DNA of 63,561 nt, filler included, from Neolecta irregularis DAH-3 (lineage: Eukaryota), in NCBI GenBank assembly GCA_001929475.1. It is 7 parts of 7 records of this genome, joined end to end, with 100 filler letters (N's around TTAATTAATTAA, not from the genome) between each part and the next. Parts side by side here need not be neighbours in the genome. Positions count along the whole stretch, not along the records: positions 1 to 3,254 come from LXFE01003014.1; positions 3,355 to 28,113 come from LXFE01000292.1; positions 28,214 to 29,684 come from LXFE01003016.1; positions 29,785 to 31,396 come from LXFE01000293.1; positions 31,497 to 59,965 come from LXFE01003019.1; positions 60,066 to 61,738 come from LXFE01003021.1; 1 more part is not named here. One strand, written 5' to 3'. The notes under the pieces were generated by a model that ran no database searches, was not told the DNA's origin, and saw nothing but the letters and a program-made list of their open reading frames with translations. The first letter of the stretch is position 1. The number at the start of each line of letters is the position of its first letter. The position numbers and the translations under genes are program-made. Below, in pieces: positions 578 through 61,738 of this stretch.

Positions 578-1277
578 ATGGCACAACAATCTCCAATGGA
601 GCCGCCCGCGCCGCCATCAAACCCCGAATCTAGCGCTCTGGAAACCNNNNNNNNNNGCACAACAATCTCCAATGGAGCCGCCCGCGCCGCCATCAAACCC
701 CGAATCTAGCGCTCTGGAAACCTTAGAGAAACAACTCCGCTCATTGGTCGATATTATGCTCGAAGCAAGCATTGCAATTCATGATGTTGAAGGGCCTCAA
801 TCAAACCAGATAGTTGCTTCGAAATTGTACATTTCCTCTGTTCACCAAAGCTCACAAGATAGAAAAGAGACTGTAAGTCAGTTTCAGAGCTTACTACGCA
901 TTAAAGATTCGATTACAGAAACAGTTCCACAGGACGTACTACAGTATCCTGACATTGGATCGGCAAACGTTGATCAATTTCAGATACATTGAAGACGGTA
1001 GAAATCCCGATGTCTATACCCGCGACTTCGTGGAATTGGTACGGAAAGATAATCAGTTTGTCAATGGCAAGATAAAGGCTGCCAGGGTATCCTATCGATG
1101 TAAAGAGAGCTTGACGATTAGGATTTTGCACTTATTTTTGGCAAAGAACTTCAATATTCGTTTCCAGAGCTGAAAGATGATGTTGAGAGAGTTTGGAGGG
1201 CTACAGGGCTCGGCGAGGCCACTGAAGAACGAGAAATGATTAAAGAAGGCCAAATAAATGGAAACACGACTGTGTAA
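578..1277 (+). CDS. MED10: Mediator complex subunit 10 (Nut2), 3 introns; 5' part duplicated around a 10-N gap
   Basis: Spliced product has [36 protein letters not shown] (Med10 signature). Three GT-AG introns restore the frame to TAA at 1277. Confidence 0.93.
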
Positions 1278-1758
1278 ATAAAATTTGGTGAAGGGTACTT
1301 GGATTCTGTGAAATTGCTAAACAATACGGTTTGTTTGATATCTCCATTTTCCCCTAGAATAATTCTTGCAAGCTTTAAGGTTTGTTTATTTCGAAGCAAG
1401 GACTAACATGTCTTTTCGAAAAGATCTTCAACCAGGAAAGGATTCTCTCCTTCTTTAAATATTCGTTCTGGGTTTCGTTTCGCAATGTCGAAAATTGGCT
1501 GTCGAAAATTCTGAACAACAAATCTGCTGGATTTTCGATCGTTATCCAGATCAATGCTCTCATGAATAAGCCCCAAACCAGTCTTAGAGCTTTTCAACAG
1601 ATATCAAACAATTCAATGGTTTCATTTTCGCAGTCGGTTCCTCCAATTTGTTGGATTAAACTCAATGGTCAAGTATATTGAAGATCATTACGAGCACCTC
1701 TGATTCCCCTGAACAACCGAACTTGAAAATAGTATGGGCTTCCCTCTTTCGAGAGAAT

Positions 1759-2021
1759 GGCCTGTCTTGCTAATCAAGCCAGGCCCTACTTATAGAAGAA
1801 CTAGCAGATGCGCTTCCTCATCTCTGTTTGCCTCCCTGCATACCTCTCGCGTGGTAAAGCTTGTGGCCGTCCTGACTTGGCTCGGTAGTACTGTTTGCCA
1901 CAGTTAGGCTGCTTTGATCAGCGTCAACGTCAGTGAGTCTTGAACCGCTGGGGGAGTCCTGGTGGCTTGGGATGAGGGTTGCCGGTGCTGTCTGATCGTG
2001 GGGCATGATTAAGTCTCCACA
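1759..2021 (+). mobile_element. 5'-truncated solo LTR, family A
   Basis: Aligns by eye with 25556-25822 (hairpin, TATA, GTGGGG..CCACA end). Confidence 0.8.
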
Positions 2022-2125
2022 CAGCTCGTCCTAAATAGAAAAAGCAGCCACAGGGATATCCCACATTATGAAACAACAATCATACACAAGGCAAAGGAGA
2101 CACTAAAAACGAGCCGCTGCCGGGT

Positions 2126-2225
2126 CGCTCCCGGGTGGGTTCGAACCACCGACCCTTCGGTATTAAGGTCCTCTGTAATCAGAAGGGCTAACAGCCGAAT
2201 ATAATAACCACTATACTACGGAAGC
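2126..2225 (-). tRNA. tRNA-Asn(GTT) with 27-nt intron
   Basis: Reverse complement GCTTCCGTAGTATAGTGGTTATTATA-TTCGG-CT-GTT-A-[intron]-A-CCGAA..GGTTCGAACCC..CGGGAGCG. A/B boxes and a T5 terminator downstream. Confidence 0.93.
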
Positions 2226-3189
2226 AGTCACATGAGGATTTGCTGAATGGCCTAGTGAATTATACTATATAAATGCCGGTGACGGTTCAGTTTAGTGAGT
2301 TCATTGAGATCTAAGCTGGCAGAATTTTTCATGTTGGGCAGACATCTATACTATAACCTTTCTTTACTTGAAGCCAAATTTAAATTAATATACCATGTGT
2401 TCCATGTGAATTGTCAAGCAGTGAACTGACCACCACCCCAGCACTCGTAGGCTACTTTATCCAATTTCACCACCAGTAGTCTGCTTTGCCTTTCCCAGGG
2501 TATTATTCAGTCATAGAGTATTACTGCTTATACCCACCTCGATACCTGTTATCTAACCGAGATATGAACTAGTAGAATACTTCACCCCTGATAAATTTGT
2601 CTTGTGGAAAGAAACGTCATTTGAATAGGGGGTTTGTATGTTTCTGGTGGATTTTTGGATCGTAGTAGTAACAAGACAAGAAGGCATTCATTGAATATTG
2701 AAGAAAGTAAAGGCGAAGGAGGAATAGCAAAATTACGCTATTCCTATTTACAGAGTTTCGGAGGAGACTGATATCAGATATTTAAGACATCTTGAAGAAT
2801 ATTGTGAAGTGAATTGCTATGTCGGTATAGATACGTCAAAAACTCTTCAACAATTTGAAATGCTTTGAAGAAATGATGATTTACCATCTGATAAAGCGCC
2901 CGGTCGTCACCATACTGTATACGTCAGGGAATATGGGGCTGGGAGTTTGAGTTAGTCGCTAAAGAAATCCGCTTACTCGTAATAATATTTAAACACTCGG
3001 ATTTGTGGACCAAAGTCATGTCGCTACGAGACCTTTTGTATTTCGATAAATCATCGATCAAGATGTTTTTTTCATGGAGTCTAGGCCGGCTAGCTGTTTA
3101 ATACCGTGAACATGTATAAGGATGGTTCAACCAGAAAAAGCCCACAGGTAACGCAAAAGCACAACGAAGAACTAATAAATATGATCGGC

Positions 3190-3254
3190 TGTAAGGGTAT
3201 ATCCCGGCTATTACCCGGATATACCCATACCAATACAGCAAGTGGCGGAAAGGG
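3190..3254 (+). mobile_element. 5' end of a young LTR (family B-related), running into a gap
   Basis: Begins TGTAAG; exact reverse-complement copy at 29785-29848; similar to the 5' end of the solo LTR at 38197. Confidence 0.75.
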
Positions 3255-3354
3255 NNNNNNNNNNNNNNNNNNNNNNNNNNNNNNNNNNNNNNNNNNNNTT
3301 AATTAATTAANNNNNNNNNNNNNNNNNNNNNNNNNNNNNNNNNNNNNNNNNNNN
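3255..3354. other. Assembly linker (N44-TTAATTAATTAA-N44); same at 28114-28213, 29685-29784, 31397-31496, 59966-60065, 61739-61838
   Basis: Identical 100-nt spacer with a six-frame stop cassette. Confidence 0.97.
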
Positions 3355-3449
3355 CCAGCTATGATACTTGAGAATAGAAATGGGAGCCAGATGATGTTTG
3401 TTTGCAATTTTGTATACCAACTTTTTATTTATGTAGAGTATTGTGGGGA

Positions 3450-3790: not shown

Positions 3791-4760
3791 CACTGGATGC
3801 AACCGAATGGTTCCAGGCAAATGAGACTGAAATCGAGACAATAGACGATTTCTACACCTTGTTTGCACAGAAATTTGTTGAGGAAAGCGATGTCAGTATT
3901 GCACAGGTTCAATTCAGAAATGTCAAGCAAGGCAACCGTACCGTGTTGGAATATGCAGATGAGTTTCACTCACTATGCCGAAAGATTGGCCGCACCCATT
4001 GCTCAGAACGATTCGCTATCGAAAAGTTTGCAAATGGATTGCATCCAACCATTTACACTCAATGTATTCCGGAGATCATACGAACTGAATAGCTCCATAT
4101 ATTTGTTGCAGCGGCAATGTTAATGGAATCCGACATTGCAAATAGAGCTTCTAGCAAAAGAAGTGGGTGGCGAACAGAAAGTCCTAGAAAGTTAAGCAGC
4201 GACAGAATGGTGAATGTTTCCAATGTGGCACACGAGGTCATATGGCTCGAGACTGCAGGAAAAGCATGAAAAAGAGATCTAATACGAACCATTCAGTAGG
4301 AAGAAAGGATATTATGTCATTTAGCCTAGAGGAAGAAGCAAATACAGTCTATTCCGAGTGCAGTTTCACAACTTCAACCAAACCAACACATAAAGTACAA
4401 ATACCACTCACAGTGGGCATTCAGGTTGGTAATAGGGTTGTGGAGGCACTGATTGACACTGGGGCACCATGCAATCTCATTGCATCAACCGTCGCAGATC
4501 AGCTAAGAGGACAAATTGAAGTCGACGTCTTGAGCAGAAAATCCGTTTGTCTCAAGCCTTGCAGGGGGGTCACGCTGAGATCATTCGCGAATATATCGAA
4601 ATTCCAATATCAATTCCCTTGATAAAGTTTACTTCAGAGACAACAATGGTATTTCATATTGTTCCATTGAATAAATATGAAGCGATTTTGGGAGAACCTT
4701 TTATTACGAGTTTTAAATTGACTATAAAACCATACAAAAGATGAGTTACTATGAAAGGGA
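3790..4760 (+). mobile_element. Degenerate Ty3/gypsy gag-protease remnant
   Basis: Retrotransposon gag (KQGNRTVLEYADEF..KFANGL), zinc knuckle CFQCGTRGHMARDC at 4215-4256, aspartic protease ALIDTGA at about 4446-4466. Stop at 4090 and frameshifts. Confidence 0.88.
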
Positions 4761-5006
4761 GCAAGCAAAATACCTTTCAAACAGCAATAGTATTAGGAAA
4801 CCATGGCCTCATGAGAAGAATACCCAGACCGGGCGTTTGAGCAACCAGTAATCCTAGAAAGTTATGAAGATGAGCATAGTATTGAACAAAGCTAGATGTT
4901 GTAGGATCGCAAAGGCCTCAGCAAGGCAGGTCTGGGTGCAGGCGCAGACGGACTGGAAGACGCAGAATGCGGCACTTACGGAGAAGGCCTGTATAGTATT
5001 ATTTAA

Positions 5007-5090
5007 TATCACGTGAAAAAGCCCGTTTCGGCCCATAGGCTTAGGGCTTTTAATGGGCCGGGCTAAGCCCATGGCCCATTACCAACACTG
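5007..5090 (-). mobile_element. hAT-like DNA transposon terminus (CAGTGTTGG..)
   Basis: Reverse complement resembles 15593-15680: CAGTGTTGG start plus GCCCATGGGC/AAAAGCCC subterminal motifs. Confidence 0.6.
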
Positions 5091-5429
5091 GTGTCAGGTT
5101 CGGGGGTGTTAGTTTCATCGCCCCGGAGCTTAGTCGTCAACACTAGGGCTCGCTCCCAGCTCGAAGTACATCAAGTCTGAGCATTCACTCAACAGACCCG
5201 TCTTTATTTAGATTGAATTCGATATCGGCTTCTTGAAATGTGTTATGGATATTGACAACGATCTTCCATGGCGGGCGCAGCCGATCATTTACTCTCTTCA
5301 ATAGTTTAAATCTTTAGAAGCCATTTTATATTACCAAAGTCATATTAAGCAATTCAACTTGAGAATCTAATTCAATGAGACATTTACTTATAGCCAATTC
5401 CCATTTCGTTCTCTTAGAATCATCTTCCA

Positions 5430-6125
5430 TTACAATGCAACGAATAATCCAAGCATCCCTCCCAACAATCCAGAAGCAATGGCATTCTTTCCGGAACCAC
5501 TATTCGCAGTGGCCAGGGTCGAATTCGAACCTCGCAAAGTAGGAGCTCCAGTTGAGGCTGTAGTGTTGCTACCCGTCGTCACAGTGGATGAATTCGTTGC
5601 TTGCGCGGATGTAGTTGCACTCAGCGAAGATGGTACACTAATCGCGACCGATGTAGCAATTGAAGGTGCAGAAGTAGCCGGTATGGCGCCAGAGCTGACA
5701 GGCGTCAAGGAAGTGCTTGCAGCCGAACAAGTACTGCAGGGTTGAATTTCGAACAGCGGCGAGCCCTCAAAGTCCACCATTGCAGAGGATGAACCTCCGC
5801 CGATCTCGATTTCGTAATCCTTGCTGGCTGGCAGGTTGGTATCTGGATTCCATAGATACGAGCCAGTGTTCTGGACTGATTCCGCGATGGTGAGGACAGT
5901 ATCGTCGTCTTTCTTCAAGATAATCGAGACTCTTGAGTAACTTGTGCCAGGGTCTGTTTGCCAGGTGATAGTGTACACACCTCCTCCCGCTGCCCATTAG
6001 GACATGTTCGTTCCATGGTGAGACTGCATACCTTGAATAACAGCATTCTCGGCCGGTGCCAGGATGGTAAAGCCAGCAAAAACAATTGAAGGCAATACGG
6101 AGAGAATGAAAGTCTTGAAGTTCAT
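5430..6125 (-). CDS. Secreted Ser/Thr-rich GPI-anchored cell wall protein (Kre9/Knh1 N-terminal-like domain), 1 intron
   Basis: Signal peptide MNFKTFILSVLPSIVFAG; YTITW..IAESVQNTGSYLW..YEIEI domain; S/T stalk; hydrophobic C-terminal GPI signal. Confidence 0.85.
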
Positions 6126-7506
6126 CGGATAGGGACGAGAGAAAATCAAAGGCCGAAGAAGGCTTTTTAAACATTTGTTCCGCGGGCTTACTTATCTTTG
6201 ACGAGGTGACAGATCATCAATTAGCCAACAAAGCAGAGCTTTCTATCGCTAAATATTTTGCCAATCGTCATACCTAAAAATACATATCTCGGCGGGACCG
6301 ATTTCGTACCTCCGTACTTGGCCCGGTCGGTAGAACCACCCATGAAGATACAAACACTGATCTTGGTTCGCCAGGCCCAAATATAAGCACATTTGACCAT
6401 TGTTCTGTATGCGGGGTGTCTTTAAAACAGCAAGTAGGGAAACCACACATAGAAATGCCCAAAGGAGGCGGTATGTTGGTGTGACTTGAAAATCAAACTT
6501 CGTGGATGTTTATTATACGTAGGGCAGTTGTAGTCCACTTATTTGTAGAAGTTGAGGAAGATCAGCGGAGAGAACATGCGAGATTGAAAGGCGTTGCCAT
6601 CAAAGATGGACTAACCTTGAATAAGTTGATTGAACTTATAGGATCGCCAGCTTCAAGAATCGACTAGTGCAGCAGGTTGAATTTCTGAATGGGGATGACC
6701 CCCTTTGAAATGTAATAAAATGTAATAAAATCTGATCTGTCATTGGACAACCAACTTATCAACTCCATGCGTCCTGTCGGAATACTGGATACCCGAAGCT
6801 AAAAATATCTCAGTCTAGCTTGTCTGAGAGATCAACACTGAAGTATTATCGTAAGCAGGCTCAAATGATGCGAGATTTGCAGGAAGAATAACCGAGTGAG
6901 CTTGGTAGATAATTAAAGTAAAAACTTAGACTTGAGTTGTTATTCTATAGGTTGAAAATGAGGAACTTCACAGCTCTACTCTATGGACAATCGGCAGGAC
7001 ACGTAAGAAAAACAACGAAATGAGAGATGCCTACGATACAATGCTCTCTTCCCAGGTTGAGAGTGCTATGGCGGGCCGAGTCCCATCAAATGTGCTCATT
7101 CCTACAAATGCGCGATCGAGACCACACATGCGCTGTTAAAGTAAGGCAAACGCGTAATGTTGATCAGCGGAAAAAGATAATTATTAGCATAAAGTAAAGG
7201 AGAGAAGCTTGAGAGGACAGGTCAGACAGAACGGGTGTCAGACAGACGAGAAAATATATAATGGGAAATAGTGTTGGGGTCAACCTGGCCTTGTATATAA
7301 TATGTTAGCAGATCCGGAGAGTCCGAACCACAGTAGTAGACTTGCCCTTATATTAGCATTTCCGTTAAATTCTCTCTACTGTATCTTTAGATATTTCACT
7401 AAAACCTAAAACAACACATAAATACTGAAACCATTTCAAAAACCAACAAAGCATGCCAAATAAACATACACTAAACCCTGAAAAACATACAACAGAACAA
7501 AAGGTA

Positions 7507-8980
7507 CTAAATATCATCCTCATCACTCTCATCACTCTGGTTCTTGATCCATTTGGCGCCAAGCCATCGTCTAATACAACTCTCAATAGGCCTTTTCTGA
7601 GGACTTTCCGGCGGGACAAGCATATCTGTGCTAATTAGCGATTCGTCGCCTATTCTGCTGACTTACAAAACCCGGAATCAAGACTTGTTGGCTCACACTG
7701 ACATTTCTGTTCCATGAATGGCGGGCAATGAGAATTGACATCATGTCTTTCATGTTAATGTAGGTCTGAACGCGAGAATTACACGTAGCCAATATCTCGA
7801 AAGAAGTGCACTGCATCTTTCGGGAGAAGAAGGGATAAAGCAAGGGTATGAACAGGCGCATCTCCAAGTCTTTCGTAAAAGAAACCACCTTTTTTGTCGA
7901 GATAATCAAAGTAAGCGTTATATTTATCGCCGCGGAAGAAATTTAAATTTGCTAAAAGGAGCATGAGCTTTGTGCGCGAGGAACTGGGTTCACAAACCAA
8001 TCTCAAAATTTGAAAAGTATTGGCAGCTATTGTATTCGCCGTCTTCATCCAACAGCCAATCTAAATTTCGATCCGGATGCAAAAGCTCAGGACGAAGAGA
8101 CATAAATTCCTTGGTTGTCTTCCATAAGCTCGGAAAGGATCTAGCGTCATCCAGAATATTGATATTAAAGCCTATTTATTAGCCAAGCTCCTCTATTGCA
8201 TACTGCCATAGGTTTTGTTATGTCTTACCATAAATTGGAAAGGATCATAGTCGATATCACAGAGAAACTTGACATCAGGTTCAACACGCCAGTACCAGTC
8301 AAATGTATCTAATCGGGGGTGTTTATAAAACATCCCAGAATTCCAACGACTATTGAAATTAGTAAATATAACGCTCAGTAGCAGGTAAAGCATTACCACA
8401 TATGATGGTACGATACCATCCAGCCTTTCCCTACGCCAATCGCCCCAAGATACTCTAAAGAATTCATGAAGCGGGTATTCTGGTTCATGAGAAAAGAAGG
8501 CTTGTTATATGATATTACGTCAATCCATTTTGGTATTGACCAATGTTCTTCTAGTACCAATTCTACCTGCATCAACAATATCCTTCCGAGAAGTTTACCA
8601 TAAAAGCATTCCGCCTTCGTCAAGCTCCGTGTCACTTCTTTAAATTCTTCCGTAAATGGTTCTTGTAAGGAGGTTAAAACTGAGTTTCTGAAGGGCAAAC
8701 CCTCATTGAAAAAAACCCAGGGATAATTGAAGCGATGATTGAATCGCCTTTCGAGGTGTACCATACTCTGCTTCATTCCCTTCAACTCGGAATTGCGAAC
8801 CAGACTAATCAATGCAGCTTTTGGCATTTCTTGGTCATTTTCCTGATGCAATTGTGATCTTGTGTAGTTTTTCAGGGGATGCGGAGCCGAAGTACGATTG
8901 AGGACTGCGAAAAATGATATCAACAGGAGAAGGATAAGAATAGGATAGCTAAGAAGGATCCTGGGCTCACGAGAGCCCAT
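7507..8980 (-). CDS. GT15 alpha-1,2-mannosyltransferase (KRE2/KTR family), 8 introns
   Basis: N-terminal TM; AALISLVRNSEL, YPWVFFN, SYHHMCRW, YWRVEPDV, FSNFEI, GGFFYERLGDAPVH. The last exon ends ..ESCIRRWLGAKWIKNQSDESDEDDI*. Confidence 0.92.
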
Positions 8981-10204
8981 TAGAACAGATGATTGGGAAG
9001 GAAACTCTGATTGCTTCCGCGGAGTGTTTATTGAAAGTGGAGAAAATCGGCAGTGTTAATTTGGAGGCGTTGGCGCTCGATAGGCTTCCAGCACTGATCT
9101 CGGCTCGCCAAGGGTTGCACAAATTTGATATTCGTCAAGAGGATGTGATCTCAGGGAAATGACATCTAAGGACATCTTGTCTGAACTCTCATGGATGTAT
9201 CGATAGGATCGAATGATAAAAATCATTTAATCAAGACAGCGAGATTGCGGATCCAAAGCACTGATGCTGTGGAAAACATGGGCCTATGTAAGTGTTGAAG
9301 CTCAAGTACGAATAAGACCAGGTTATTATACTAGTCTAAGTGACTTGAACTTGATTAGGTATGAACGCCTATCTAACTTTTATAGTACAAATGAAAATGC
9401 CGCAATATCATTGCCAGCCTTCCTTCCGTAATGGTAAGCTATACCCGAGAATATATACTTACAGCTTATCTAGCCAAACTCTGAGGGCTAATGACGGATG
9501 AACAGAAAGACACAAGGGTTCTGACTGTGGAGGCTCTATAATATAGAGCACCAATTTGTTCCTCACTGTCTTTCCAAGTGCTAGAATTAACTTTTTGAAC
9601 CGAAGGGAATGATAAAGTCACTATCATACACAAATATATTTGTGATCAGGTGCTGAACTTTAACCCGGCTAAAAGGGAGTTAAGACCCATTCGCAAATAG
9701 CATAGTTATTTTCAACCAAATGAGCCACGCTAGCTACCACAACCTAAATCTGACAAGAGTATCCGCCGCCAAAGGTCTTATACTCAGACATATCCATTGT
9801 AAGGCGTGGATTACACTGTATGCTTGGCTAATAGCCCAGACACTTGGACAGATTGAATTTTCAATCTTATAGATGGTAGTAATAACACGAGGGCTTTACA
9901 CAGAAGCAACCTGACTAACAAACAAGAAAGAAGTCAAAAATACCAGATTTCAACAAGGAGTTGAATACTCATTGAATAGTTGTCAGAGATGTAAGGAGCT
10001 ATATAAAAAGTCATAAGGCTAGGTATCTATATGAAGACCTTTTGCATATCTGGAGAAGTGCTTGACCAGCGTTTCCACCCTTGATTGGCATTCGCAATTC
10101 CTTGATCGTGTATATCGTGTTCATTGGTCGCGAATTAAAACAATGAAAATGACGGCAAGGCTGGAACGTTCGGATTGTTCACCTCCAATTGACGACTCGA
10201 GTAT

Positions 10205-13200: not shown

Positions 13201-13208
13201 TGAGCTAA
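10205..13208 (+). CDS. HIR1: HIRA histone chaperone Hir1, 7 introns
   Basis: MFIIKPNWLSH WD40 start, TTYFRRLSWSPDG, B-domain KGRKRVAP, C-terminal SLAHLENR. Confidence 0.95.
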
Positions 13209-13295
13209 TCTGTATTATAAAAATGGCTAAGCCGACTAATTAAGATAAGCCGACTCTGTATATACATCTTACGGGCTATTTAACTTAAATTTTCA

Positions 13296-14033: not shown

Positions 14034-14234
14034 TTTAGAAGAGGATGAGGCCAGATCGCTTCACGTGATGGACGTTTATTGTCGTCGCCAAGAAAGTTGA
14101 GGATACCATACGAAGACAGCCTTTGTTTTGTGCGTTCCTGCTTTTCGACACTCGCCACTCTTTTGCGCCATTTCCCGGTTTCGGCGATCTCGCCCCAATA
14201 TCATCCCGTTTTATCGAAGGATTCGTACTTGAAG

Positions 14235-26075: not shown

Positions 26076-26119
26076 TGGATATGGTCAAAGGAGCTCTACA
26101 ACTGAGACAAAATGTTGGT

Positions 26120-40442: not shown

Positions 40443-40584
40443 ATTATATGAATAAACATGGCCTAAATTACCTGAGATAATGAAAATATGCAATGTTATT
40501 TATATGATTATACAAACCGATATTGTCAGTAGAAGTAGGAAAGCATTTCGCAAAGGGTGTAATGTACTCACCTGACTATCTCAT

Positions 40585-47100: not shown

Positions 47101-47182
47101 CGTTGTTAAAGTCCTGGAGAATAAATTTCACCGGGTTTCATTGCCAAAGCGTTTTACTGCGTTGACCTTGAATGAGGGATGA
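44165..47182 (+). CDS. VIP1: Diphosphoinositol pentakisphosphate kinase Vip1/Asp1, 7 introns; start may be 44198
   Basis: [64 protein letters not shown]. Confidence 0.95.
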
Positions 47183-49178: not shown

Positions 49179-49601
49179 GAAACTATATATTGTGGGGTAT
49201 AAGGAATTCGGGTTGCCTCTTTGGGTAGGTTCTGGTGGGCTAATTACTGATTGATCCTTTACGAGGACCCAGGAATGTCATCAGAATTACAGCCATAAAT
49301 ATATTATCAACTTCTAGACATATACTCTGAGGAAGAGAATATTATCTCACATCTGTCTTTCTTGACCTTATCCCCCAAAATTAGAGCAACCCGAGACGCC
49401 ATTTCTGAACTCGATGTGGAAATGCTGTCGTAGCCTACCGGGCCTTTGTAAGGATTCTCAGTTGTCTTATCCATTGTTGTACTGAAGGTCATTCAGAATT
49501 GTGCGCAAAGAAATTCATGCTTTGACAAATTTGATACAAATACAAAGGACCAATTGGCAAAATTGTTCCCCACAAGATTCCTGTTCAACACATTTACATC
49601 A

Positions 49602-51116: not shown

Positions 51117-51561
51117 CGCGAACAATCAAAAATTGATTTTGGGTGGTGAGGACAAATCAGAATCAGTCGGAAATACCCGAAATATGGACCTATGAAAGGA
51201 TTTACTCAAAAGCATACCATATACTATTTGTATGGCGGGGTTCGAGCGCTTTTCTCTTCAATTAAGCAAGAGTACAAAGCTGCAAGGAGAATACAGCGGC
51301 GGAACAAGGACCAATTATTCTCAAAAGAACTGTATAGCTAACGGTTTTGGAATGAGAAATATGCAGAAGGAATGAGAAATGTGCAGAGTTTAGTGTAACT
51401 GGCTATAATTTTCTGTTGGACTATTAATCATAGTTGGAACAAAGGTAATTAATTAGTTTGGTGAGAATGAACCGCAACAATTTCGACGTATGGGAATTTC
51501 CCTCTTACACGTACGTGGCTGCTCGACCCAGTCTCGTACTCATTAAAAAAAACCTGTCAGA

Positions 51562-52577
51562 ATGTCATCTCGTATAGAGACAACCCACAATGTCCCCTCC
51601 ACATATGCGTCACCCTCAGGACTCGAGACCAGCTCACCGGAGAAACCTGCACCTATCGATTCCGCGACACAGCAAGCTTCGGGCGACTCTACAGCTCCTT
51701 CATTATCTCCTATCCTCGAAAATCTGACACCTCACGAGGCAGAAGCTCTATCACAACTTAAAGAATCACAAACATGGAATTCTCTTCTCGCAAAGATCGG
51801 CGAAGAACAACACGAACTGTGGGGCATCCCGATTTCGACTAACTCACCCAAACGGGATGTCGTGCTGATGAAGTTTTTACGAGCACAGTACATCTCTTGC
51901 CAGATCTGACTGACACTTAGCAAGCTAATCGTTCCAAACGCAGTAGAAAACCTCGTTGAAACTTTGAAATGGCGGAGAGATTTTCGCGCGCTCGAAACAA
52001 TTACCGAGCCCCACGCGGAAAAGTTTCAAAAAGTGGGTTTTATTTTTGGAAAGGACCTCAGAGGGCGACCAGTAACCTATAATATCTATAGCGGTCTTGA
52101 TAATAAATCGGTCTATTTCCTACTCAATCTATCTAAACAATAGATATTCGGCGATCTTGATGCATTTTTACGCTGGCGTGTCGGTCTTATGGAACGGGCT
52201 GTTCAAACTCTTGATTTTGAGAAATTAGATCAATTATCTCAGATCCACGACTACCTAGGAACAAGTCTCTTCCGTATGGACGCCGGTACAAAGAAGGCTT
52301 CTCGTTCTGTCATCAAAATCTTTCAGCGCCATTACCCAGAACTTCTTGCCGCCAAGTATTTTGTCAACGTACCAAGAGGTATGGAATTTGTGTTTAGTGT
52401 CGTGAAGCCGTTTCTTTCTGCTGGTATGCTTATACTCGTGTTTAAGCTAAGCTATTAGACACAATCAAGAAGTTTGTCGTCCTCGCAGATTCCAAAAAGC
52501 TGGTTCAGTTTATTCCTGCTGATGAGCTGCCTGAAATATATGGTGGGAAAGGAAAAGTTCACGAGTTATCGCTTTAG
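51562..52577 (+). CDS. SFH5: Sec14/CRAL-TRIO phosphatidylinositol transfer protein Sfh5, 3 introns
   Basis: ELWGIP, KFLRA, TLKWR, VTYNIY, FLRWRVGLME, QIHDY, YPELL..KYFVNVP, LPEIYGG. Confidence 0.88.
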
Positions 52578-52845
52578 AGACCGGTGGCTAATAATTGTTT
52601 TGTGTGATGGGGGAGGCAGTTGTCGTATCAGTCCCTGGTGACAGTGTAGGAAGGAAATAGTGTATAATATTTACCGGGTATATCGTCTCAACTCAAAATC
52701 CATTATTGATACTCACCTCACTTTTGCACCTAGGGTGTCATGAAATGTTCTGCAGATCTCTTTAAGCATATTCTTTGTTTATCTGCATGAATTGAATACA
52801 GAATATATGTTTGACCAAAAGATCCTGAAAATATCTTGATTAGAA

Positions 52846-54353
52846 ATGCTCTGCCGACGATTTTATTCCACAGTCAGACGTAGACCATTAGAAGGCATTC
52901 GCGTCCTTGATCTTTCCAGGGTTCTGGCTGGTCCATATTGCACAGTATCAGGCTTCTGTCCCTTCTTTTCTAATCTCTGAGCAAATTTTGGGAGATCTGG
53001 GGTACTAGATCTTGTGCCATAATGAGAGATTGAAAGCAGAGCTGAGGTTATTAAGATTGAACATCCGGTCCGCGGAGATGATACCCGAGCTTGGGGACCA
53101 CCTTTCTCCAAAAGTGGAGAAAGTGCTTATTACTTATCAGTATCGACCACCCAATGTTTCTGGCAAGGACTAATCATTGCAAAAGGTCAATCGAAATAAG
53201 TATTCACTTGGTGTCGACTTCAAAAAACATGAAGGAAGGCAAATTATACTCGACCTTGTGAAGAAAAGTGACGTTTTTGTGGAGAATTATATACCTGGAA
53301 CAATGGGAAAATATGGATTGAGTTATGAGGACATAAAATCTATCAATCAGGAACTAATCTATGTCTCAATTACAGGAACTTAATCTTTTTTATTCTAATC
53401 GAGAACTCATTGATTCAGGCTATGGTCAAACAGGGCCACTGTCACAAAAACCCGGCTATGATGTCATGGTAGAAGCCGAGTTTGGGTTAATGTCCATAAC
53501 TGTGTGTGAGTTTTGGAAAAGATCTAATCAATTTTCAAGGGACATCCAGATGGAAAGCCCACAAAGGTCGGTGTAGCGATAACAGACTTGACAACTGGAT
53601 TATATGCTGTTAATGCAATCCTAACGGCACTCTTCCACCGCGAGCGAAGTCCATTGCGCGAAGGACAGTACATCGATGTAGCATTGAGCGATTGTCAACT
53701 TGCAAGCCTTACAAATGTAGCAAGCTCCGTGCTTCATGGTGGAACATCACAGAGATGGGGAAATGCTCATGGAAATATTGGTATATATACAACAAAGTCT
53801 ACTGTTAGCCAATCGGTTTAGTACCTTATCAGTCATTCCCTTCATTGGACGGCGAGATTGTGATAGGATGCGGTAACAATATTCAGTTCCAGAAATTTCT
53901 TGCTTTAGTTGGTCGTGAGGATATTGCCAAAGATGAACGATTTTCAACAAACAAGAGCCGTGTGAAACACCGAAATACTTTAGTGCCATTGCTCGAAGGC
54001 ATCACACAATCCAAAACTACTTCAGAATGGGAAATTTTACTGGAGAATACGGGCATTCCGTGTGCTCCCATCAAGTATTTTCACGTTGAAGTAGTTTATT
54101 GACTTTCAGTGACGTTAAAGCTTCACTTGAACATCCTCATTCATTGTCTCGTAATATGGTGCAGGATCATGGAAATAAAGATACCGGAGAGATGAGGCTA
54201 ATCGGGCATCCCATCAAATATATTACTTTGGACGTTGGTATCAAAAAGAGACCACCCATGTTGGGCGAAGATAGCTCGGATGTGTTATCTCGAATATTGG
54301 GGAAGAATAAAGATCAGATAGCTCGACTGAAGCATGATGGAGTAATCATGTAG
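52846..54353 (+). CDS. CaiB/BaiF family III CoA-transferase (SUGCT-like, probably mitochondrial), 7 introns
   Basis: [70 protein letters not shown]. Confidence 0.92.
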
Positions 54354-54547
54354 TTTTTATTAAATATTATGACATGAGTCAACAGGGATAATCATTGGCA
54401 TCAATCAGAAACACTCAGACATGGATGAAATACGAGGACTTTGAAAAAGCATCACTTATTGTATGACTGGTGCCTACTATAGTATATGAAATTATTATTA
54501 TAAGAGGAAAGTCCGATGAGTATTAGCATTGAAGGAAAAATGGACAA

Positions 54548-56367
54548 TTATTCTTTCCCGATATCTTTGAGATACTCAATTGAAAGCTTCTCGATGCTCT
54601 GAGGTGGGTTCTCCCTTGTTGGAGGCGCGGCTTGATCCGTGAAGAGCTTGTCCTGATAGTAAGTTTCAAGATAGTAAATATCATATCATACCATCTCTTC
54701 AAGGGTCTTTCCTTTGGTCTCCGGGAAGAAAAGAAAGACAGTGGTTGCAGAAACAACATTTAAGACAACAAACAAAAGGTAGTATCGTGATTTCGCTATC
54801 TCATGAGTGAAAGCAGAAAGTCGAGTGCTTGCAATGCTCCAGGCCAGGTGGAGAGACCTGAGCGAACAGAACGTTAAAAGCCCAGTTACTCATAGTTGAT
54901 ATTGCATTTCCCTTTGCTCTAGTTGATGCTCAGTGCTGTCGTCTAGGACTTGGGAGAACACACCGGATTCTGAAAGGAAATATTTCGGCAACATAAACCC
55001 AGCTGACTGGACCCCAGCTTAAACTGAAGATGATACTTGCAAGCCAGATCATCGCCAGTCCTGTTGACTGTGCATTTTTGTTCGTCGCTACTCCATCTCG
55101 AGGTTCATATTTAGTGTTAACAATACATTCGATCAATAGTACAGTAGCGAGTCCCAATGAACCATATATCAGTGGTCGTTTACGACCAAATCTGTCAATG
55201 ATGCATGTAATAAAGAAGAAATTCGCGATAGGTCCAACTACGCCGTAGATGGATTGAAGGAGGAAAATCTTGTGGCCTGTATACCCAAGGATCTTGTACA
55301 TTATGGGACCATAGTAATTAATGCTTCATGGATCTCAGAAGACAGAATGATGAGAAAACTTACACATTAATTCCAGTACATTGACTGAAAATCTGTGTTA
55401 AACAGCCGAGAGCAAGGTAAGGGCGATATGTTTTCTGCAGTAGAAGGTCTTTTAAAGACACCTGAACAAGGCGTTCTGATTGAATCTGGTGACTAATCTC
55501 AGAGTATTCTAAGAACCTTAACATGTATTTTATTAAAGGATGTACCAAGATTGATCCAGTCATCATTTTTCCCATCATAGTGCAATCGTCTTAGAACTTG
55601 TTTTGCTTCATCGCCACGGTTCATTTTAACAAGATAGCGGGGGGATTCCGGAAGAAAAAAGGTGAATACAATGAGCATTATTGAAAAACAACCTATGATA
55701 TCGGGTCTTTTCCATAGAAACAAGTATATTACATTGCACGGCTAACGGAAATCGCCATTGGAATGCAGATCCTTTAACATGAGCGCTTCCATAGCCAACC
55801 CTGTGTCTGTTAAATCTTTCAGGCATTCAAATTTGTACCAGTTCGAAGCAATAAATCCCAATCCAATCATCTGTTGTTGTAGGCCTGAAAGAAAGCCACG
55901 ATGCTTTGGAGGGCTAATTTCCGCTTGATACATTGGTACAATCATGCTTAATTGGCCGATAGAAAACCCAGCAATCAAACGACCGAATAGTATCATCACA
56001 AAATTCTGTCCAGAAGCTTGTAGCGCGCATCCATTTGCTGCTACTTAGTCCAGGCCCCCTGAAATGAAGACATGCTGCAAATCACCGCACCAATGAAGAT
56101 TGTCCTGACTCTTCCGTAACGATCTGCTAACCATCCTGCCATAGCAGCTCCAAAGAAGGCTCCTGCTGCAAATACAGAGACAATTCCACCTTCCTGTGAG
56201 GAAGAGAGATTAAACTTGGATATAAAAGTCTCCTGCACCAACGTTTCAGAGATAACTCCCGAATCGTAGCCGAACAGAAAACCACCAACGGCAGCCGCGA
56301 GGGCGCAAATGATTGTAATGACCAGACTGAGACTGGTCAATGCATGCTTGAAGATTGTATACCCCAT
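54548..56367 (-). CDS. MFS sugar porter, 8 introns
   Basis: GGFLFGYDSGVIS, DRYGR, YQAEISPPKHRG, PESPRYL, SWGPVSWVYVAEIFP, PETKGKTLEEMD. Confidence 0.93.
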
Positions 56368-57215
56368 AACTGTTGCTGAAAGGAAATTCCGTATCTCGGA
56401 TAGAGATACATGGCAGTATTTAACCTAATCTCAGTTAGAGTGATAGTTGGGCCGCCGTCCCAGACTATGCCCTCAATCCCGAAGTGAATACAATAACACA
56501 AACAGATAGAGTGGATCAAGGATATCGGGTATAGTTTGATATCCTCATGATCAGAATTTGGATTGAATCGGTTAATTATTGGATTGGAAGCAGAAGAAAG
56601 ACAAAGAAACCGTCACCTCTGGCAAAGCCATCATCTCCGTAAATATACCCCTTTCTGATGAGATTTACTACTGATTCGGGTGCCAGATAGCTTTGATCCA
56701 TTCCAATGGGTTCCCTAATGTGATTTTAGAAATATTAGAGCATAGAAGAAGGTGGAACTAATGTTCAGACCGACCCGTCCGGCAGGCGATTGGACACACT
56801 GCTAGATGTTGTGAATGCAACCAACCCCGTGATATAATTACAGCAAATCAGATGGTCCCCCTAAGCATACCCGCTAATTTGACCACGTACTCGATGCTTT
56901 CTTCCAATATATTTCCCATTGAACACAGGGTTTGAATAGCGAATGACCTCTTTACAGTCATACTCGGACATAAATACCCGAAATTTACTGCCGTGGAAGC
57001 GACTATCTAAACATGTATAATATTTGCCAAAAGACCAAAATATTACCCCGTACAAATAGGCTTTGTCGGAAACCTTGCAGTCTCGATAGAAAGAAAAATA
57101 AGAAAACAGCAAGCAATTGAGGAGCAAAGCATTTATGCAGCTAATGCACTGGCCCGTGGTCCCTCTACGACTCAAAAGCGAGGGAATCTCCTCAGTATGC
57201 TGATCGCAGTTTATT

Positions 57216-59614
57216 ATGAAATTTTCGAACGGTCGCTGGATGTTGGCTGAAGGAACAGAGATCGACTATGCCACTGAGGTTATAAAACTCGAAAAGACAG
57301 ATTCTTCGATACGAGGATTATTGGCTACGCGACATATCCGAAATCGTGGTGATACATTGAACTCTGGGACCATTACGCTGGATATTGAGAGTCGATGGAG
57401 TAACATCGTAAAGATCAGTGCTACCCACTGGGATGGAAAGCTGAATCATGGGCCAAACTTTGAACTTTTCCCTGATGGGGAACCCGACAGAAGAGTTGTC
57501 TCAGTATATTCAACAGACACCGTCGCATCTCTCGAATCAGAAGAGCTTAGGGTAGATCTGAGGTTAAAACCAAATGGCTTCGGCTTAGACTTCAGTGGAG
57601 GCGGGAAACCGTTGACAGCCATGGGCTTCCGATCGCTCTGCTACATCAAAAAACATCCCAGCAGTTTCCCTTATCTCCTAACTATGCTCGATCTCGACGT
57701 AGGTGAGACAGTATATGGTTTAGGCGAGAGATTCGGACCTTTCGTTAAAAATGGTCAGGAAATTGAAATATGGAACCGTGACGGCGGCACGAGCTCAGAA
57801 CAAGCGTACAAGAACGTCTCGTTCTACATGACATCCAACGGCTACGGTGTCTTCGTAAACACCCCCGAGAAAATTTACTTTCAGGTTCAAAATGAACGAG
57901 TTACAAGAGTTCAATTCAGCGTTCCAAATGAAAAAGTTGAATGGTTCCTCATTTATGGACCGACTCCCAAAGAGGTGTGCTTTCCGAAACTCCAATTCTA
58001 TAATGTGTCTTATTGCACAGATTCTCCAAAAGTACACTGTTATTACTGGAAGGCCACAGATACCTCCGACTTGGTCATTTGGCCTCTGGTTATCTACGAG
58101 CTTCACAACCCGTTACGATGAGACCACTGTGTCTGAGATCCTCTCAAAAATGGAAGATCACAATCTTCCGCTCCACACATTTCATTTTGATTGTTTCTGG
58201 ATGAAGGTACTTTTCCTATCATCGCACCCTGAGAAGGACAGCGTTACCAGTGGTGCGATTTTCAGTTCGACACGGATACATTCCCTGATGCGGCCGGCCA
58301 AATCGCACGGATGAAAGTGCGGGGGCTCAAGATCTGCGTTTGGATTAATTCTTACATTGCCCAAGAATCAGAAATGTTCGTCCAAGGCCGAGATAAAGGG
58401 TACTTGTTAAAGCGGAAGAATGGGGATATCTGGCAATGCGATTTGTGGCAAGCCGGCATGGGTATCGTAGATTTCACGAATCCTGAGGCGATAAAATGGT
58501 TTCTTGGAAAACTGGAGAAGTTGCTAGACATGGGCATTGATTCATTCAAGGTACCCCCTAAATTCCGCGCTATATTCATGCATAGACCGATTTTGGAGAA
58601 CGAATACCGACTGAAGATGTAGTTTGGCATGATGGCTCGTGTCCCCTAAAAATGCATAATTACTATTCAATAATATACAACAAATTCGTCTTTGGGCTTC
58701 TCCAATCGCGTAATCCGCAAGCTTGTCTCTTCGCCCGCTCGTCAGCAGCTGGAGGCCAGCGATTCCCAGTACATTGGGGCGGAGACTGCGAAAGCACTTT
58801 TGTCGCGATGGCTGAGACGCTTCGGGGCGGTCTAAGCCTAGGTTTATCGGGGTTTGCGTTCTGGAGCCACGATATTGGAGGATTCGAAGGTAATCCGGAT
58901 CCTGATGTTTATAAACGATGGATTGCATTTGGACTTTTAAGTAGTCATTCCAGACTTCATGGTTCAGATAGTTTTCGGGTACCTTGGGCTTTTGATGAGG
59001 AAAGCGTCGATGTTCTTCGGACGTTCATAAATTTGAAATGTCGACTCATTCCGTATATTCTGTTTGCCGCAAGGCAGGCTAGAGTTTTTGGGACACCGGT
59101 GATTCGGGCAATGTTGTTGGAGTTCCCGGGTGATCAGACAGCGCGGTACTGCGACCGACAATTCATGCTGGGAGAATCTCTTCTGATAGCACCTATTTTT
59201 AACTCAGAGGGTGATGTTCATTATTATGTCCCTGAGGGTAAATGGATTGGCCTAGTCGATGGAAAAGAGCGGATTGGTCCTAGCTGGGTTCAGGAAAGAC
59301 ATGGAACGCTCAGTATTCCGATTTTACTCCGACCCGGCCATACCCTAGTTCTCGGAAAGAGCGAATCACAGGTAGAATACGATTATCTTGATGGGTTTAC
59401 AATTGCAACCAACTGCATTTCATCGAATGTCACTGTTGAGATACCAGATTCAGCAGATCCGATGAAGTCACTCGGCTCAATTTCGTTTCAAAGAAACAAT
59501 GATAAGCTTTACCTCGCTAGCCATGGAATTTCGAGTCCCTGGAAGATGAAGCTTCTTGAAACAGGATTAGAAATCGAGATATTCGGGGCTAAGACTGTTG
59601 TTGCGCTTGAGTAA
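57216..59614 (+). CDS. GH31 alpha-xylosidase (YicI-type), no signal peptide, 3 introns
   Basis: MKFSNGRW, YGLGERFGPFVKNGQ, DGGTSSEQAYKN, WSFGLWLSTSFT, HFDCFWMK, FKTDFGERIP, HWGGDC, WSHDIGGFEG, LSSHSRLHGS. Confidence 0.93.
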
Positions 59615-60065
59615 CCATTTGAGTATTCTTGCCCGAAAGCCGCTAATCATCTGTATTGCGGTGTTTCCATAATGATGCTAATACATCTGCTTTATAACAT
59701 GATTATATGGTGACCTCTAGGTTATGTAATTTTTCCTCCCGATAGATTCCGCCATGCATTCTCCATTCAGACAAAGGCGTAATTCTACTTTATCCGTGCT
59801 TGGGTATTTATCAGTGTATCATATATACTAAAGATCAACCTTCACAAAAGGAATCTTAAGCAGTGTGGCCAACCGCCCGCCCTAACGGATGAGGAGGGCA
59901 GGCGATAATGGGCAAGGAGGACGGGGCAGTAATTGGCAGGAGAGCGAGAGGAAGTGAGTAGGGGANNNNNNNNNNNNNNNNNNNNNNNNNNNNNNNNNNN
60001 NNNNNNNNNTTAATTAATTAANNNNNNNNNNNNNNNNNNNNNNNNNNNNNNNNNNNNNNNNNNNN

Positions 60066-60233
60066 CCGCCGCCGCCGCCTGCCGCCCGCCTGCCCCGCGA
60101 CCTCGCCGCCCTGCTCGCCGCCTATGACGCCGCCCCCGCAGACGTCGCCGGCCCCGCAGACGTCGCCGGCCACGGCTCTTCTGCCGAGGACGACTTTTTC
60201 GAGATCGACGACCCGGAGGACGCCCATAGCTAG
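60066..60233 (+). CDS. 3' end of an unidentified GC-rich gene emerging from a gap
   Basis: Open frame PPPPPAARLPRDLAALLAAYD..EDDFFEIDDPEDAHS* with strong G/C bias at third codon positions. Confidence 0.5.
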   Translation, partial: PPPPPAARLPRDLAALLAAYDAAPADVAGPADVAGHGSSAEDDFFEIDDPEDAHS

Positions 60234-60265
60234 ATATATGCGTTGTGTATGCTGTCTGCTTCTGC

Positions 60266-60560
60266 TGTACTGCATGTCTATTCGGCTGTACTGCCTCTGT
60301 CATTTGGCTACTACTGTACTGTACTGCACTGCCTCTGTCATTCAGCTACTGCACTGTACTCACTTCGTCATTCGGCTGCTACTGCACTGCACTGTACTGC
60401 CTCTGTCATTCGGCTCTACTACTGCACTGCCTCTGTCATTCGGCTACTGCACTGCTGCTCTCTCCTAGCTACTTCCTGCCAGACCTANNNNNNNNNNCGT
60501 CATTCAGCTACTGCACGCTGCACTGCCTCTGTCATTCGGCTACTGCACTGCTGCTCTCTC
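60266..60560. repeat. Imperfect tandem repeat, unit about 25 bp (CTACTGCACTGCCTCTGTCATTCGG)
   Basis: About six units visible; part of the array is duplicated around a 10-N gap. Confidence 0.8.
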
Positions 60561-60564
60561 CTAG

Positions 60565-60850
60565 CTACTTCCTGCCAGACCTACTGTCAGCCCGCCCGCC
60601 CCGCCCCATACTTCTTGATCCCGGCCCCGCCTGCCCGTCAGCCCCGCAACATGCCCACGTACCCAGCGGCCCGCCCTTGAGCGCCCGCGCCCGCGCTTCA
60701 GCAAGCGCCTTCTCGTCCTCCCGCGCCTTCTGCATCCGCGCAACGTCCTCCGCATCAAACTCGCTCCGCTCCTTCTTCGGCTTTTTCAGCGGCTTGGCTT
60801 TGCCTCCTTGGCGGCTCTACTCTCAGCCCCCTCCCGCGTGGACATACCAT
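60565..60850 (-). CDS. TMA7: Translation machinery-associated protein 7 (63 aa), 3 introns (60817-60847, 60631-60662, 60581-60611)
   Basis: Spliced product MSRQGGKAKPLKKPKKERSEFDAEDVARMQKAREDEKALAEARARALKGGPLGGAGIKKSGRK*. Not present in the ORF track. Confidence 0.9.
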
Positions 60851-61001
60851 GGTGTGGGTGGTGGCTCGCCCAACCTCCCTCTTCCCTCCCTCCTCCCCCA
60901 CCGCACCTCCTCTCTCCCCAGAGACCCGCAACACTCTGACAGTACCAAATCACTGTCTTGTTCTCAATCCTTATTTACACACTCGCAGTGTTCTTTGCTT
61001 C

Positions 61002-61738
61002 ATGACTCGATCCGGCTCGTCCTCCCCAGACGAAGGCGAAATCATCGAACACGACTCCTTTGCCCACAAACGCCTTATCCATGACGACAACCACAGACCA
61101 CAAAAGCGCAGAAGAAAATCAACCCGTGACCGCAGACAACATCGTGTCGTCTACGAACCCCGCATGAATGACAAACACGGAAAGATCCATAGGTATCCTG
61201 TCCATTACCGCTGCTAATCCTAGCAATGTATCAATCAAAGATCCTCTATCAAATGTGACAAAATCTGCGAATCCAGACTTGAAAGCTGAAAATCCAGATT
61301 TGAAAGGAAATCCAGATAAGCCAGACATGAATCCACATTCGATGCCAGATTTGAATCCACATTTGATGCAAGCTTCCAAGGAAAATCCAAATGTCATAAC
61401 ATCTCAAAATCCAGATTTGAAAGCTGATATGACTTTGAATTCAGACATAACAGATCCAAAAGATCTAGATCTAGACGAGGATGCTCTCATTGAAAAACGC
61501 CGCCTCCGACGTGAGGCTATTCTAGCAAAATACAAATCTCTCTCTTCCGTCCCCGCATCGCCCAAACTGGACCCCTTTACTGGTTAGTCTCCACTATACC
61601 ATTCTCACTCTAGAAAACGCTACTTTTTCTCTCGCAAAACCAGCTGCCCAAGTTGACCCCGTCGACATCGAAGAAGGTCCCTCGGCCGCAGACTATGACC
61701 CCATCAACGACCGCAAACTCGACGAAAAACACAGAGAA
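61002..61738 (+). CDS. PRP4: N-terminal part of Prp4 splicing kinase (truncated by gap), 2 introns
   Basis: SPDEGEI, DEDALIEKRRLRREAILAKYK and EGPSAADYDP match fungal Prp4 kinase N-termini; the kinase domain is not visible. Confidence 0.7.

Follow-up and report, generated by a model that had tools for sequence, protein, structure and literature searches.

The introns described here lie in a window of 63,561 nt (the whole stretch of DNA that was analysed) from Neolecta irregularis DAH-3, assembly GCA_001929475.1, which is intron-dense nuclear DNA. We propose, with a probability of about 0.75, that they are ordinary introns of the major spliceosome (U2-type) in a regime of minimal length, weak donors and high density, with GC and rarely GA used as donor in some of them. 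The window has a G+C content of 43.6%, and its open reading frame (ORF) fragments match housekeeping families in Pfam, such as TRM1, VIP1-type kinase, GH31, UTP21, RIC1, HIR1, CK2-beta, MBOAT and GatB. One exon of 303 residues is 100% identical to the annotated VIP1-type kinase of Neolecta irregularis, the next best matches being those of Pneumocystis, Schizosaccharomyces and Saitoella at 65-68% identity.

A curated set of 47 introns was built, 31 by spliced alignment in four genes (VIP1 kinase, UTP21, a family III CoA-transferase and an MFS sugar transporter) and 16 by reading the three frames against family motifs (CK2-beta, TRM1, mannosyltransferase-like, Rho, MCT-1-like, HIR1 and GatB). 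The composition statistics cover 45 of them, and two further GatB introns of 41 and 44 nt raise the set to 47. The alignments were made with our own protein-to-genome spliced aligner, whose length prior is only 0.04 per base with a minimum of 18 nt. It was run twice per gene, with GT-AG only and then with any dinucleotide allowed at a penalty (free mode). Homologues were picked for full length and taxonomic spread: 14 of 120 listed for VIP1, 12 of 120 for UTP21, 12 of 120 for the CoA-transferase and 12 of 150 for the transporter. Our own codon-usage gene finder served only as a guide and as the source of a separate second tier of introns, being unreliable: introns whose length is a multiple of three (3n) were read through, and the GT-AG pairs were often wrong. 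Its early models of the TRM1, transporter, MCT-1-like and mannosyltransferase-like genes proved wrong wherever checked, and an unsupervised retraining was discarded after swelling to 721 'introns'. Retrained on the curated set, the finder predicted 84 introns and recovered 33 of the 45 curated ones exactly. The 47 additional ab initio introns that it supplied are all GT-AG and 31-47 nt long, giving a total of 94 inferred introns over about 25 genes, or about 4 per gene in the window.

The 45 curated introns are 31-50 nt long, with a median of 38 and a mean of 38.2 nt. In the four aligned genes, which hold 7, 9, 7 and 8 introns, all fall within 31-46 nt, and most are backed by 10-14 of the 12-14 homologues. 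Introns clustered at 32-41 nt even when the codon-usage finder was given a flat length prior of 20-200 nt. A preliminary description of this DNA had stated that nearly all introns measure 31-49 nt, which is borne out, and had counted about 110 of them, which is plausible because the sensitivity of the finder is only about 73% (33/45). The length is divisible by three in 10 of the 45 curated introns, and the G+C content of curated introns is 38.7% versus 43.6% for the window. Two introns of the CoA-transferase gene, of 37 and 38 nt, enclose a micro-exon of 20 nt (52982-53001, plus strand) that was chosen in 8/12 alignments.

Inspection of the donors revealed a strict but very short signal. Position +1 is G in 47/47 curated introns, and the intron starts with GT in 43/47, GC in 3/47 and GA in 1/47; within the 45 used for composition, +2 is T in 41 (GT 41, GC 3, GA 1). 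Beyond the dinucleotide, A is found at +3 in 35/45 (0.83 bit) and T at +4 in 28/45 (0.43 bit), while +5 is G in only 16/45 (0.08 bit) and +6 holds 0.01 bit. The last exon base is G in 23/45. Altogether 33 distinct donor hexamers occur among the 45 introns, and the donor information from -1 to +5 amounts to about 5.2 bits, 3.45 of them at +1 and +2. The donor had been described as degenerate from +3 to +6; this is true of +5 and +6 but not of +3 and +4, and the hexamers given as examples were all located (GTACAT at 827; GTATCC at 944 and 1087; GTTTAC at 14618 and 18150; GTCTAT at 52111).

At the other end, the intron closes with AG in 47/47, and the acceptor carries about 4.25 bits from -3 to -1. 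Position -3 is T in 23, C in 13, A in 8 and G in 1 of the 45, so that 36/45 end in YAG. The many AAG acceptors noted previously are present in 8/45 curated and 4/47 predicted introns, whereas GAG acceptors number three instead of four or five, namely 52945-52981 in the curated set and 12874-12911 and 19533-19570 as predictions only. Three GAG introns of the early models (35193-35243, 54837-54867 and 44414-44441) were shown by homology to be false. A motif of the form [CT]T[AG]A, whose A is placed 5-14 nt before the 3' end, is found in 37/45 introns, compared with 19.6% of 5000 random GT..AG segments matched in length. In 34/45 introns the best branch-like A falls 6-9 nt before the 3' end, and it is usually 24-33 nt from the 5' end; the branch 7-mer holds up to about 5.0 bits, an upper bound since the best site was picked. 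The 5' site is thus effectively G-T-A-(T), and the branch/3' module and the spacing are better defined. It had been suggested that introns here are defined mainly by length and branch point and little by their terminal sequence. The near absence of an extended donor consensus agrees with the first half of this idea, the branch motif and the tight length window carrying much of the signal. The second half fails on the counts just given for +1 G (47/47), AG (47/47), GT (43/47) and YAG (36/45): the terminal G and AG show no more freedom than elsewhere, and the introns are still bounded by canonical dinucleotides.

Assignment to the U2 type is consistent with the GT (rarely GC) start, the AG end and the branch motif, and removal of the 31 introns from the four aligned genes restores a frame colinear with the homologues. 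The U12-type consensus pairs an RTATCCTT donor with a branch site, TCCTTAAC, that lies 10-15 nt before the 3' end. Three introns begin with GTATCC (944, 1087 and 61193). A U12-type reading was rejected for the first two, which carry TTGATC and CTTGAC near the 3' end and no U12 branch box; in the third, the last 14 bases, the only ones viewed, contain CTAAT.

One GA donor (53376-53418) and two GC donors (43390-43426 and 54796-54832) are needed if conserved protein blocks are to stay intact. In intron 1 of UTP21, the GC donor at 43426 was chosen in 12/12 free-mode alignments. It retains a conserved block of 9 residues ending in ...IYD directly before CAKLNLLF..., and the one block adjoins the other in each of the 7 homologues examined from other species. 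The sole GT solution (43453-43390), used by the public model P0121, has its donor 27 nt upstream and makes an intron of 64 nt, which deletes the 9 residues and exceeds every curated intron in length (n=47). In intron 4 of the CoA-transferase, the GA donor at 53376 was chosen in 11/12 alignments. No in-frame GT-AG solution exists, and the GT-AG-only mode needed a frameshift at 53413-53415 in 11/12. Removal of the GA intron joins ...SITG to YGQTGP..., which are contiguous in 5 of 6 examined homologues, those where the motif was located. A protein of 339 residues from a metagenome contig of 1313 bases (P0242) shares 81% identity with the CoA-transferase exon and continues without a break past the position of the GA intron; it may represent a transcript or an intron-less relative of Neolecta.

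In the sugar transporter, half of the free-mode alignments (6/12) took the GC donor of intron 7 (54832), and in that mode no competing GT was picked by at least two homologues although GT carried no penalty. The GT-only mode gave introns of 31 and 58 nt that end in GAG (4/12 and 5/12), and the Pfam coordinates do not discriminate between the GC and the GT models, being contiguous in either. Intron 1 of the same gene (56038-56075) probably starts with GC as well, and the public model P0361 uses this donor. The alignments there favoured donor 56090 in the GT-only mode (7+3 of 12) and, in free mode, a GT at 56071 with a non-AG end (8/12). The Pfam Sugar_tr match reaches residue 126 of the 127-residue upstream ORF; donor 56090 would cut at about residue 111 and remove about 5 residues over which the match to the profile continues.

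A GC or a GT reading is possible at two more sites, in the Rho gene (18144 versus 18150) and in the mannosyltransferase-like gene (8206 versus 8203). Both readings of the last Rho intron give a CAAX-type C-terminus, and therefore GC is not required there. The non-GT donors listed previously are thus recovered as one GA, three GC (two required, one probable) and two ambiguous GC, whereas the GG donor was not found in any gene that could be read in the window. Four other candidates were rejected. The GG at 5424-5458 cuts into a hydrophobic C-terminal tail, read as of GPI-signal type; a GC at 35123-35157 in TRM1 gave way to the GT-AG intron 35069-35106, which fits the family motifs; a CT at 4503-4537 lies inside a retroelement; and a CA at 43381-43425 was superseded by the GC at 43426. 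Scans of ORF pairs for junctions with no GT-AG solution were noisy, finding the GA site and one GC site again and no convincing new case.

Several points weigh against the proposed regime. All intron positions derive from DNA and from protein homology. Of the 47 curated introns, 16 were read against family motifs and not against retrieved homologues, and the 47 added introns come from a finder that favours GT, recovered only 33/45 and made 2 false calls within the four fully curated genes. Free mode can err too, as 7/14 VIP1 alignments took a TT-AG shift at 46331. An alignment with a free donor can therefore favour a false non-canonical boundary for a small gain, and the free-mode vote alone is not proof. 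With 4/94 non-GT donors against a fungal average of about 1.3% in an excerpt of PMC7072748, the Poisson tail is about 0.03, and with only the 3 firm cases of 94 it is about 0.12. Moreover, two of the four aligned genes were selected because they held non-GT candidates, and the genes chosen blind (VIP1 and UTP21) have 1/16. The excess of non-GT donors over the fungal average is thus suggestive, not established, and the published averages may be low where gene predictors forbid other donors. Finally, single-base assembly errors may be present at the four odd donors.

If such errors in the consensus, or else rare alleles (C at 43425, 54831 and 56074; A at 53377), accounted for all non-GT donors, every intron would be GT-AG. 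Each odd donor is indeed one base from GT, and the window is stitched, with six linker blocks, three gaps of 10 N and a 66-base duplication around 647-656, so the assembly quality is imperfect. However, four independent errors among about 63 kb would all have to strike the second intron base, the flanking exons are free of frameshifts in 12-14 alignments per gene except for a 1-base shift of P0304 at 52933-52934, and the annotators of the genome themselves accepted the GC donor at 56075; we regard this explanation as unlikely. Alternatively, the odd donors could be artefacts of intron placement, the true introns being nearby GT-AG pairs and the Neolecta proteins lacking or altering conserved blocks. 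GT-AG solutions exist for UTP21 (64 nt) and the transporter (31 or 58 nt), and the over-fitting of free mode in VIP1 shows how such an artefact can arise. Nevertheless, the UTP21 solution sacrifices residues conserved in 7/7 homologues and lies beyond the curated length range, the transporter ones end in GAG at or beyond the edges of that range, and the CoA-transferase offers none in frame, which makes this explanation very unlikely. That these genes are decaying pseudogenes or unspliced paralogues, in which donor mutations have no consequence, is hardly credible: nothing speaks for it beyond the donor changes themselves, the frames stay open across 7-9 exons each with end-to-end alignment to homologues, and in other fungi UTP21 is an essential gene of ribosome biogenesis, present in a single copy.

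Under the U2-type, weak-donor reading, the whole intron would be read as one unit (intron definition), and spacing together with the branch/3' module would therefore make up for the weak 5' site. The cues would be a fixed G at +1, in most cases with a T after it, then A and frequently T, with nothing at +5 and +6; a CTRA-type branch about 24-33 nt downstream of the 5' end; and a YAG or AAG usually 6-9 nt after the branch A. The same looseness would admit GC, and rarely GA, as donor. A stronger version, which we hold only tentatively and think more probably wrong than right, is that the Neolecta spliceosome demands only the +1 G, prefers A at +3 and U at +4, and sets the 5' cut by the distance from the CTRA branch. 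If so, GC and GA donors should make up several percent of introns across the genome, at least three times what is average for fungi, and public Neolecta gene models would be cut short or have deletions in hundreds of cases. The preference for +4 U and the missing +5 G would then stem from an altered interaction between U6 and the 5' splice site. Loss or alteration of METTL16 or SNRNP27K may be one candidate cause of such a change.

The public gene models of Neolecta are often wrong at introns, as were 4/4 of those compared. The VIP1 model (P0001) has a shifted acceptor and uses 46335 in place of 46329 for the fifth intron, and the UTP21 model (P0121) misses 9 conserved residues and reads through the 36-nt intron 43067-43102 (minus strand), one of the 3n introns, as is 10416-10451 (plus strand). 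The CoA-transferase model (P0241) has 292 residues and starts downstream of the GA intron, full-length relatives having about 400-460, and the transporter model (P0361) skips 241 nt. Donors are loose, and therefore predictors restricted to GT-AG or to GT/GC-AG mis-model these genes. Comparative studies of multicellularity in fungi and of how introns evolve draw on the Neolecta proteome (PMC5309816, PMC7940399, PMC8476143), and for this reason systematic mis-splicing in the models would bias counts of gene content and intron position.

Table 1. Genes of the window and their introns. Lengths in nt are in brackets; introns are GT-AG unless marked; "predicted" introns come from the retrained finder.
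Gene	Span	Strand	Introns	Placement and support
UTP21, 9 introns	40587..43639	-	43390-43426 (37, GC-AG, GCATAG); 43221-43260 (40); 43067-43102 (36, 3n, AAG); 42715-42751 (37); 41900-41935 (36); 41673-41707 (35); 41445-41484 (40, AAG); 41158-41191 (34, AAG); 40917-40952 (36)	Spliced alignment, 12 homologues; GT-AG introns: six at 12/12, one at 10/12, one at 7/12
VIP1 kinase, 7 introns	44165..47182	+	44409-44439 (31); 44889-44922 (34); 45875-45912 (38); 46026-46061 (36); 46329-46366 (38; annotation uses 46335); 46603-46637 (35); 46790-46826 (37)	Spliced alignment, 14 homologues; six at 13-14/14, fifth at 10/14 vs 3/14
CoA-transferase family III, 7 introns	52840..54353	+	52945-52981 (37, GAG); 53002-53039 (38); 53140-53185 (46, AAG); 53376-53418 (43, GA-AG, context cag/GAAC); 53502-53539 (38, AAG); 53781-53821 (41); 54075-54109 (35)	Spliced alignment, 12 homologues; each in 8-12 of 12
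MFS sugar transporter, 8 introns	54550..56367	-	56038-56075 (38, GC-AG probable, GCATGT; or 35 to 56041); 55801-55838 (38); 55693-55732 (40); 55509-55545 (37); 55324-55363 (40, AAG); 54919-54963 (45; 2-nt shift gives GAG end); 54796-54832 (37, GC-AG, GCAAGC); 54653-54691 (39)	Spliced alignment, 12 homologues; Pfam Sugar_tr coordinates
CK2-beta	14233..15017	+	14471-14507 (37, GTACGT); 14618-14654 (37, GTTTAC)	Pfam CK_II_beta profile positions continue across three ORFs
TRM1	34151..36174	-	35256-35295 (40, AAG); 35069-35106 (38); 34873-34911 (39); predicted 34429-34462 (34)	Pfam TRM; family motifs
Mannosyltransferase-like (presumed)	7509..8980	-	8350-8399 (50); 8172-8203 (32, GTATGC; or GC 8172-8206); 7952-7997 (46); 7747-7782 (36, AAG); predicted 7631-7671 (41)	Family motifs; C-terminal structure tentative
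Rho GTPase	17518..18271	+	18016-18053 (38); 18078-18120 (43); 18150-18183 (34, GTTTAC; or GC 18144-18183, 40)	Family motifs
GatB	26311..27902	+	26500-26540 (41); 26683-26726 (44); predicted 27060-27095 (36), 27484-27517 (34)	Pfam GatB_N; family motifs
MCT-1/PUA-like (presumed)	13298..14197	-	13791-13829 (39); predicted 13317-13349 (33), 13408-13444 (37), 13650-13692 (43)	Family motifs
HIR1	10205..13208	+	10416-10451 (36, 3n without stop); predicted 10543-10579 (37), 11264-11299 (36), 11406-11442 (37), 11775-11808 (34), 12427-12464 (38), 12874-12911 (38, GAG)	Pfam CAF1B/HIR1 propeller; family motifs
RIC1, 8 introns of 32-39 nt	18828..21875	+	predicted 19352-19389, 19533-19570 (GAG), 19669-19706, 19835-19866, 20234-20271 (AAG), 20626-20660, 20926-20964 (AAG), 21735-21767 (AAG)	Pfam RIC1; introns ab initio only
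First gene (putative Med10-like)	578..1277	+	predicted 827-862 (36, GTACAT), 944-983 (40, GTATCC), 1087-1121 (35, GTATCC)	Ab initio only
Polyketide-synthase-like (presumed)	36349..37788	-	predicted 36539-36576 (38), 36838-36877 (40), 37309-37355 (47), 37556-37588 (33)	Ab initio only
MATH/BTB-like	within 47763..52577	+	predicted 48776-48814, 49144-49174 (AAG)	Ab initio only
Actin-related	within 47763..52577	-	predicted 50513-50546, 50789-50824, 51040-51080	Ab initio only
Sec14-like (presumed)	within 47763..52577	+	predicted 51888-51920, 52111-52143 (GTCTAT), 52424-52458	Ab initio only
GH31 glycosidase	57216..59614	+	predicted 57975-58020 (46), 58207-58241 (35), 58551-58585 (35)	Pfam GH31 domains; introns ab initio
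Isolated		+	predicted 4527-4564	Inside retroelement, score 0.6; low reliability, probably false
Isolated		-	predicted 5990-6031	Ab initio only; reliability low or unclear
Isolated		+	predicted 32474-32511, 61193-61223	Ab initio only; reliability low or unclear
Isolated		-	predicted 60572-60611, 60631-60662, 60817-60847, 60936-60978	Ab initio only; reliability low or unclear

The genes and their introns are listed in Table 1. Some names are our own assumptions: we take the genes at 7509..8980, 13298..14197 and 36349..37788 (all minus strand) to be mannosyltransferase-like, MCT-1/PUA-like and polyketide-synthase-like, and one plus-strand gene within 47763..52577 to be Sec14-like, the Pfam matches in that region being weak. 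The first gene (578..1277, plus strand) is presumably Mediator Med10-like, by reading of its sequence, and the intron frames of TRM1 were read against motifs of its family. A search for Pfam family support of the isolated predictions (4527..61223) found none. Six linker blocks, each a 12-base linker with stops in all frames that is flanked on either side by 44 N, join the contigs (3255-3354, 28114-28213, 29685-29784, 31397-31496, 59966-60065 and 61739-61838). The window is therefore a concatenation of contigs, whose adjoining pieces need not be neighbours in the genome, and it holds the three 10-N gaps besides. At the start of the first gene, a stretch of about 66 bases is doubled around the gap 647-656 (578-646 and 657-722, plus strand). 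This duplication is an assembly artefact, which leaves the 5' end of that gene uncertain.

An Rfam scan found two tRNA genes, both on the minus strand (2126-2225, 56.8 bits; 26120-26224, 50.8 bits), and nothing else in the window, in which ARAGORN, unlike Rfam, called no tRNA. Both are about 100 nt long and therefore probably contain introns. Retrotransposon-like remains were recognized by eye at 3455-4744 (plus strand), where gag-like ORFs with zinc-knuckle and aspartic-protease-like motifs are interrupted by stops; ahead of these ORFs lies a low-complexity stretch rich in C, at about 3600-3790. A repeat of about 120 bases, also seen by eye, occurs in inverted orientation at about 1760-1890 (plus strand) and 40230-40345 (minus strand). 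This could be a solo LTR or some other kind of dispersed repeat, and the ORF 40045-40443 (minus strand), inside it, is probably not a gene.

Two opposite routes of intron reduction have been distinguished by Irimia and Roy (2008). In the available text of that paper, intron-poor lineages keep strong signals, while intron-dense lineages with short introns, such as Paramecium tetraurelia, the nucleomorph of Bigelowiella natans and dicyemids, lack a branch signature, their 5' sites being 'largely restricted to GT(A)' (PMC2483917). Neolecta resembles the latter, as portrayed in that excerpt (PMC2483917), in its density, very short introns, 5' site close to GT(A) and weak overall constraint, but differs in having kept the branch signature (37/45 against 19.6% of controls). 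A further difference is that Neolecta belongs to the fungi, with fission yeast as a close relative. Its introns (38 nt) are also longer than those of Paramecium, the Bigelowiella nucleomorph and dicyemids, which are roughly 15-30 nt. Within the fungi, partial texts put Pneumocystis at about 5 introns per gene (PMC4764891) and count 4202 introns in 1211 orthologues of the intron-rich Neolecta (PMC7940399). Pneumocystis, intron-dense too, and Schizosaccharomyces pombe belong to the same subphylum as Neolecta, the Taphrinomycotina. Pneumocystis, S. pombe and Neolecta share a CTRAY-type branch near the 3' end. The donors of S. pombe retain GTAAGT or GTATGT with a +5 G, whereas +5 is G in 16/45 Neolecta introns.

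As a rule, the rest of the site makes up for a GC donor by being almost perfect, AG/GCAAGT. The GC introns of Neolecta are like the GC-AG subclass in having an AG acceptor and in standing amid GT-AG introns of the same genes, but their donors have no compensating context (GAT/GCATAG, ATT/GCAAGC and GCA/GCATGT), only the second coming near the consensus. The GA donor shares the AG/GA-A context (cag/GAAC) of Eurytemora and Oikopleura, as a single case. Oikopleura introns are very short. According to an excerpt of PMC7072748, this context marks the GA-AG introns of Eurytemora affinis and Oikopleura dioica, in which GA-AG introns are commoner than GC-AG ones and amount to several percent of the total, and fungal averages from annotation are 98.715% GT-AG, 1.009% GC-AG and 0.257% others. 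GA-AG is not commoner than GC-AG in the Neolecta window (1 GA versus 3 GC, and 1 among 94). In budding yeasts, a switch from A to U at +4 is linked to loss of METTL16 or SNRNP27K, and the +4 U preference of Neolecta, an organism not mentioned in the available part of that paper, recalls this switch (PMC10581693).

Our search, which did not extend to supplementary files, found no published description of Neolecta intron lengths or splice signals, and the main text of the genome paper, supplements not counted, contains the word 'intron' 0 times. The short-intron, weak-donor regime is known from other lineages and is newly documented for Neolecta. With introns of about 38 nt, a donor close to GTAT and a clear branch site, the Neolecta type lies between those of fission yeast and Paramecium, and Neolecta would be a convenient natural system for studying how the spliceosome pairs sites in minimal introns.

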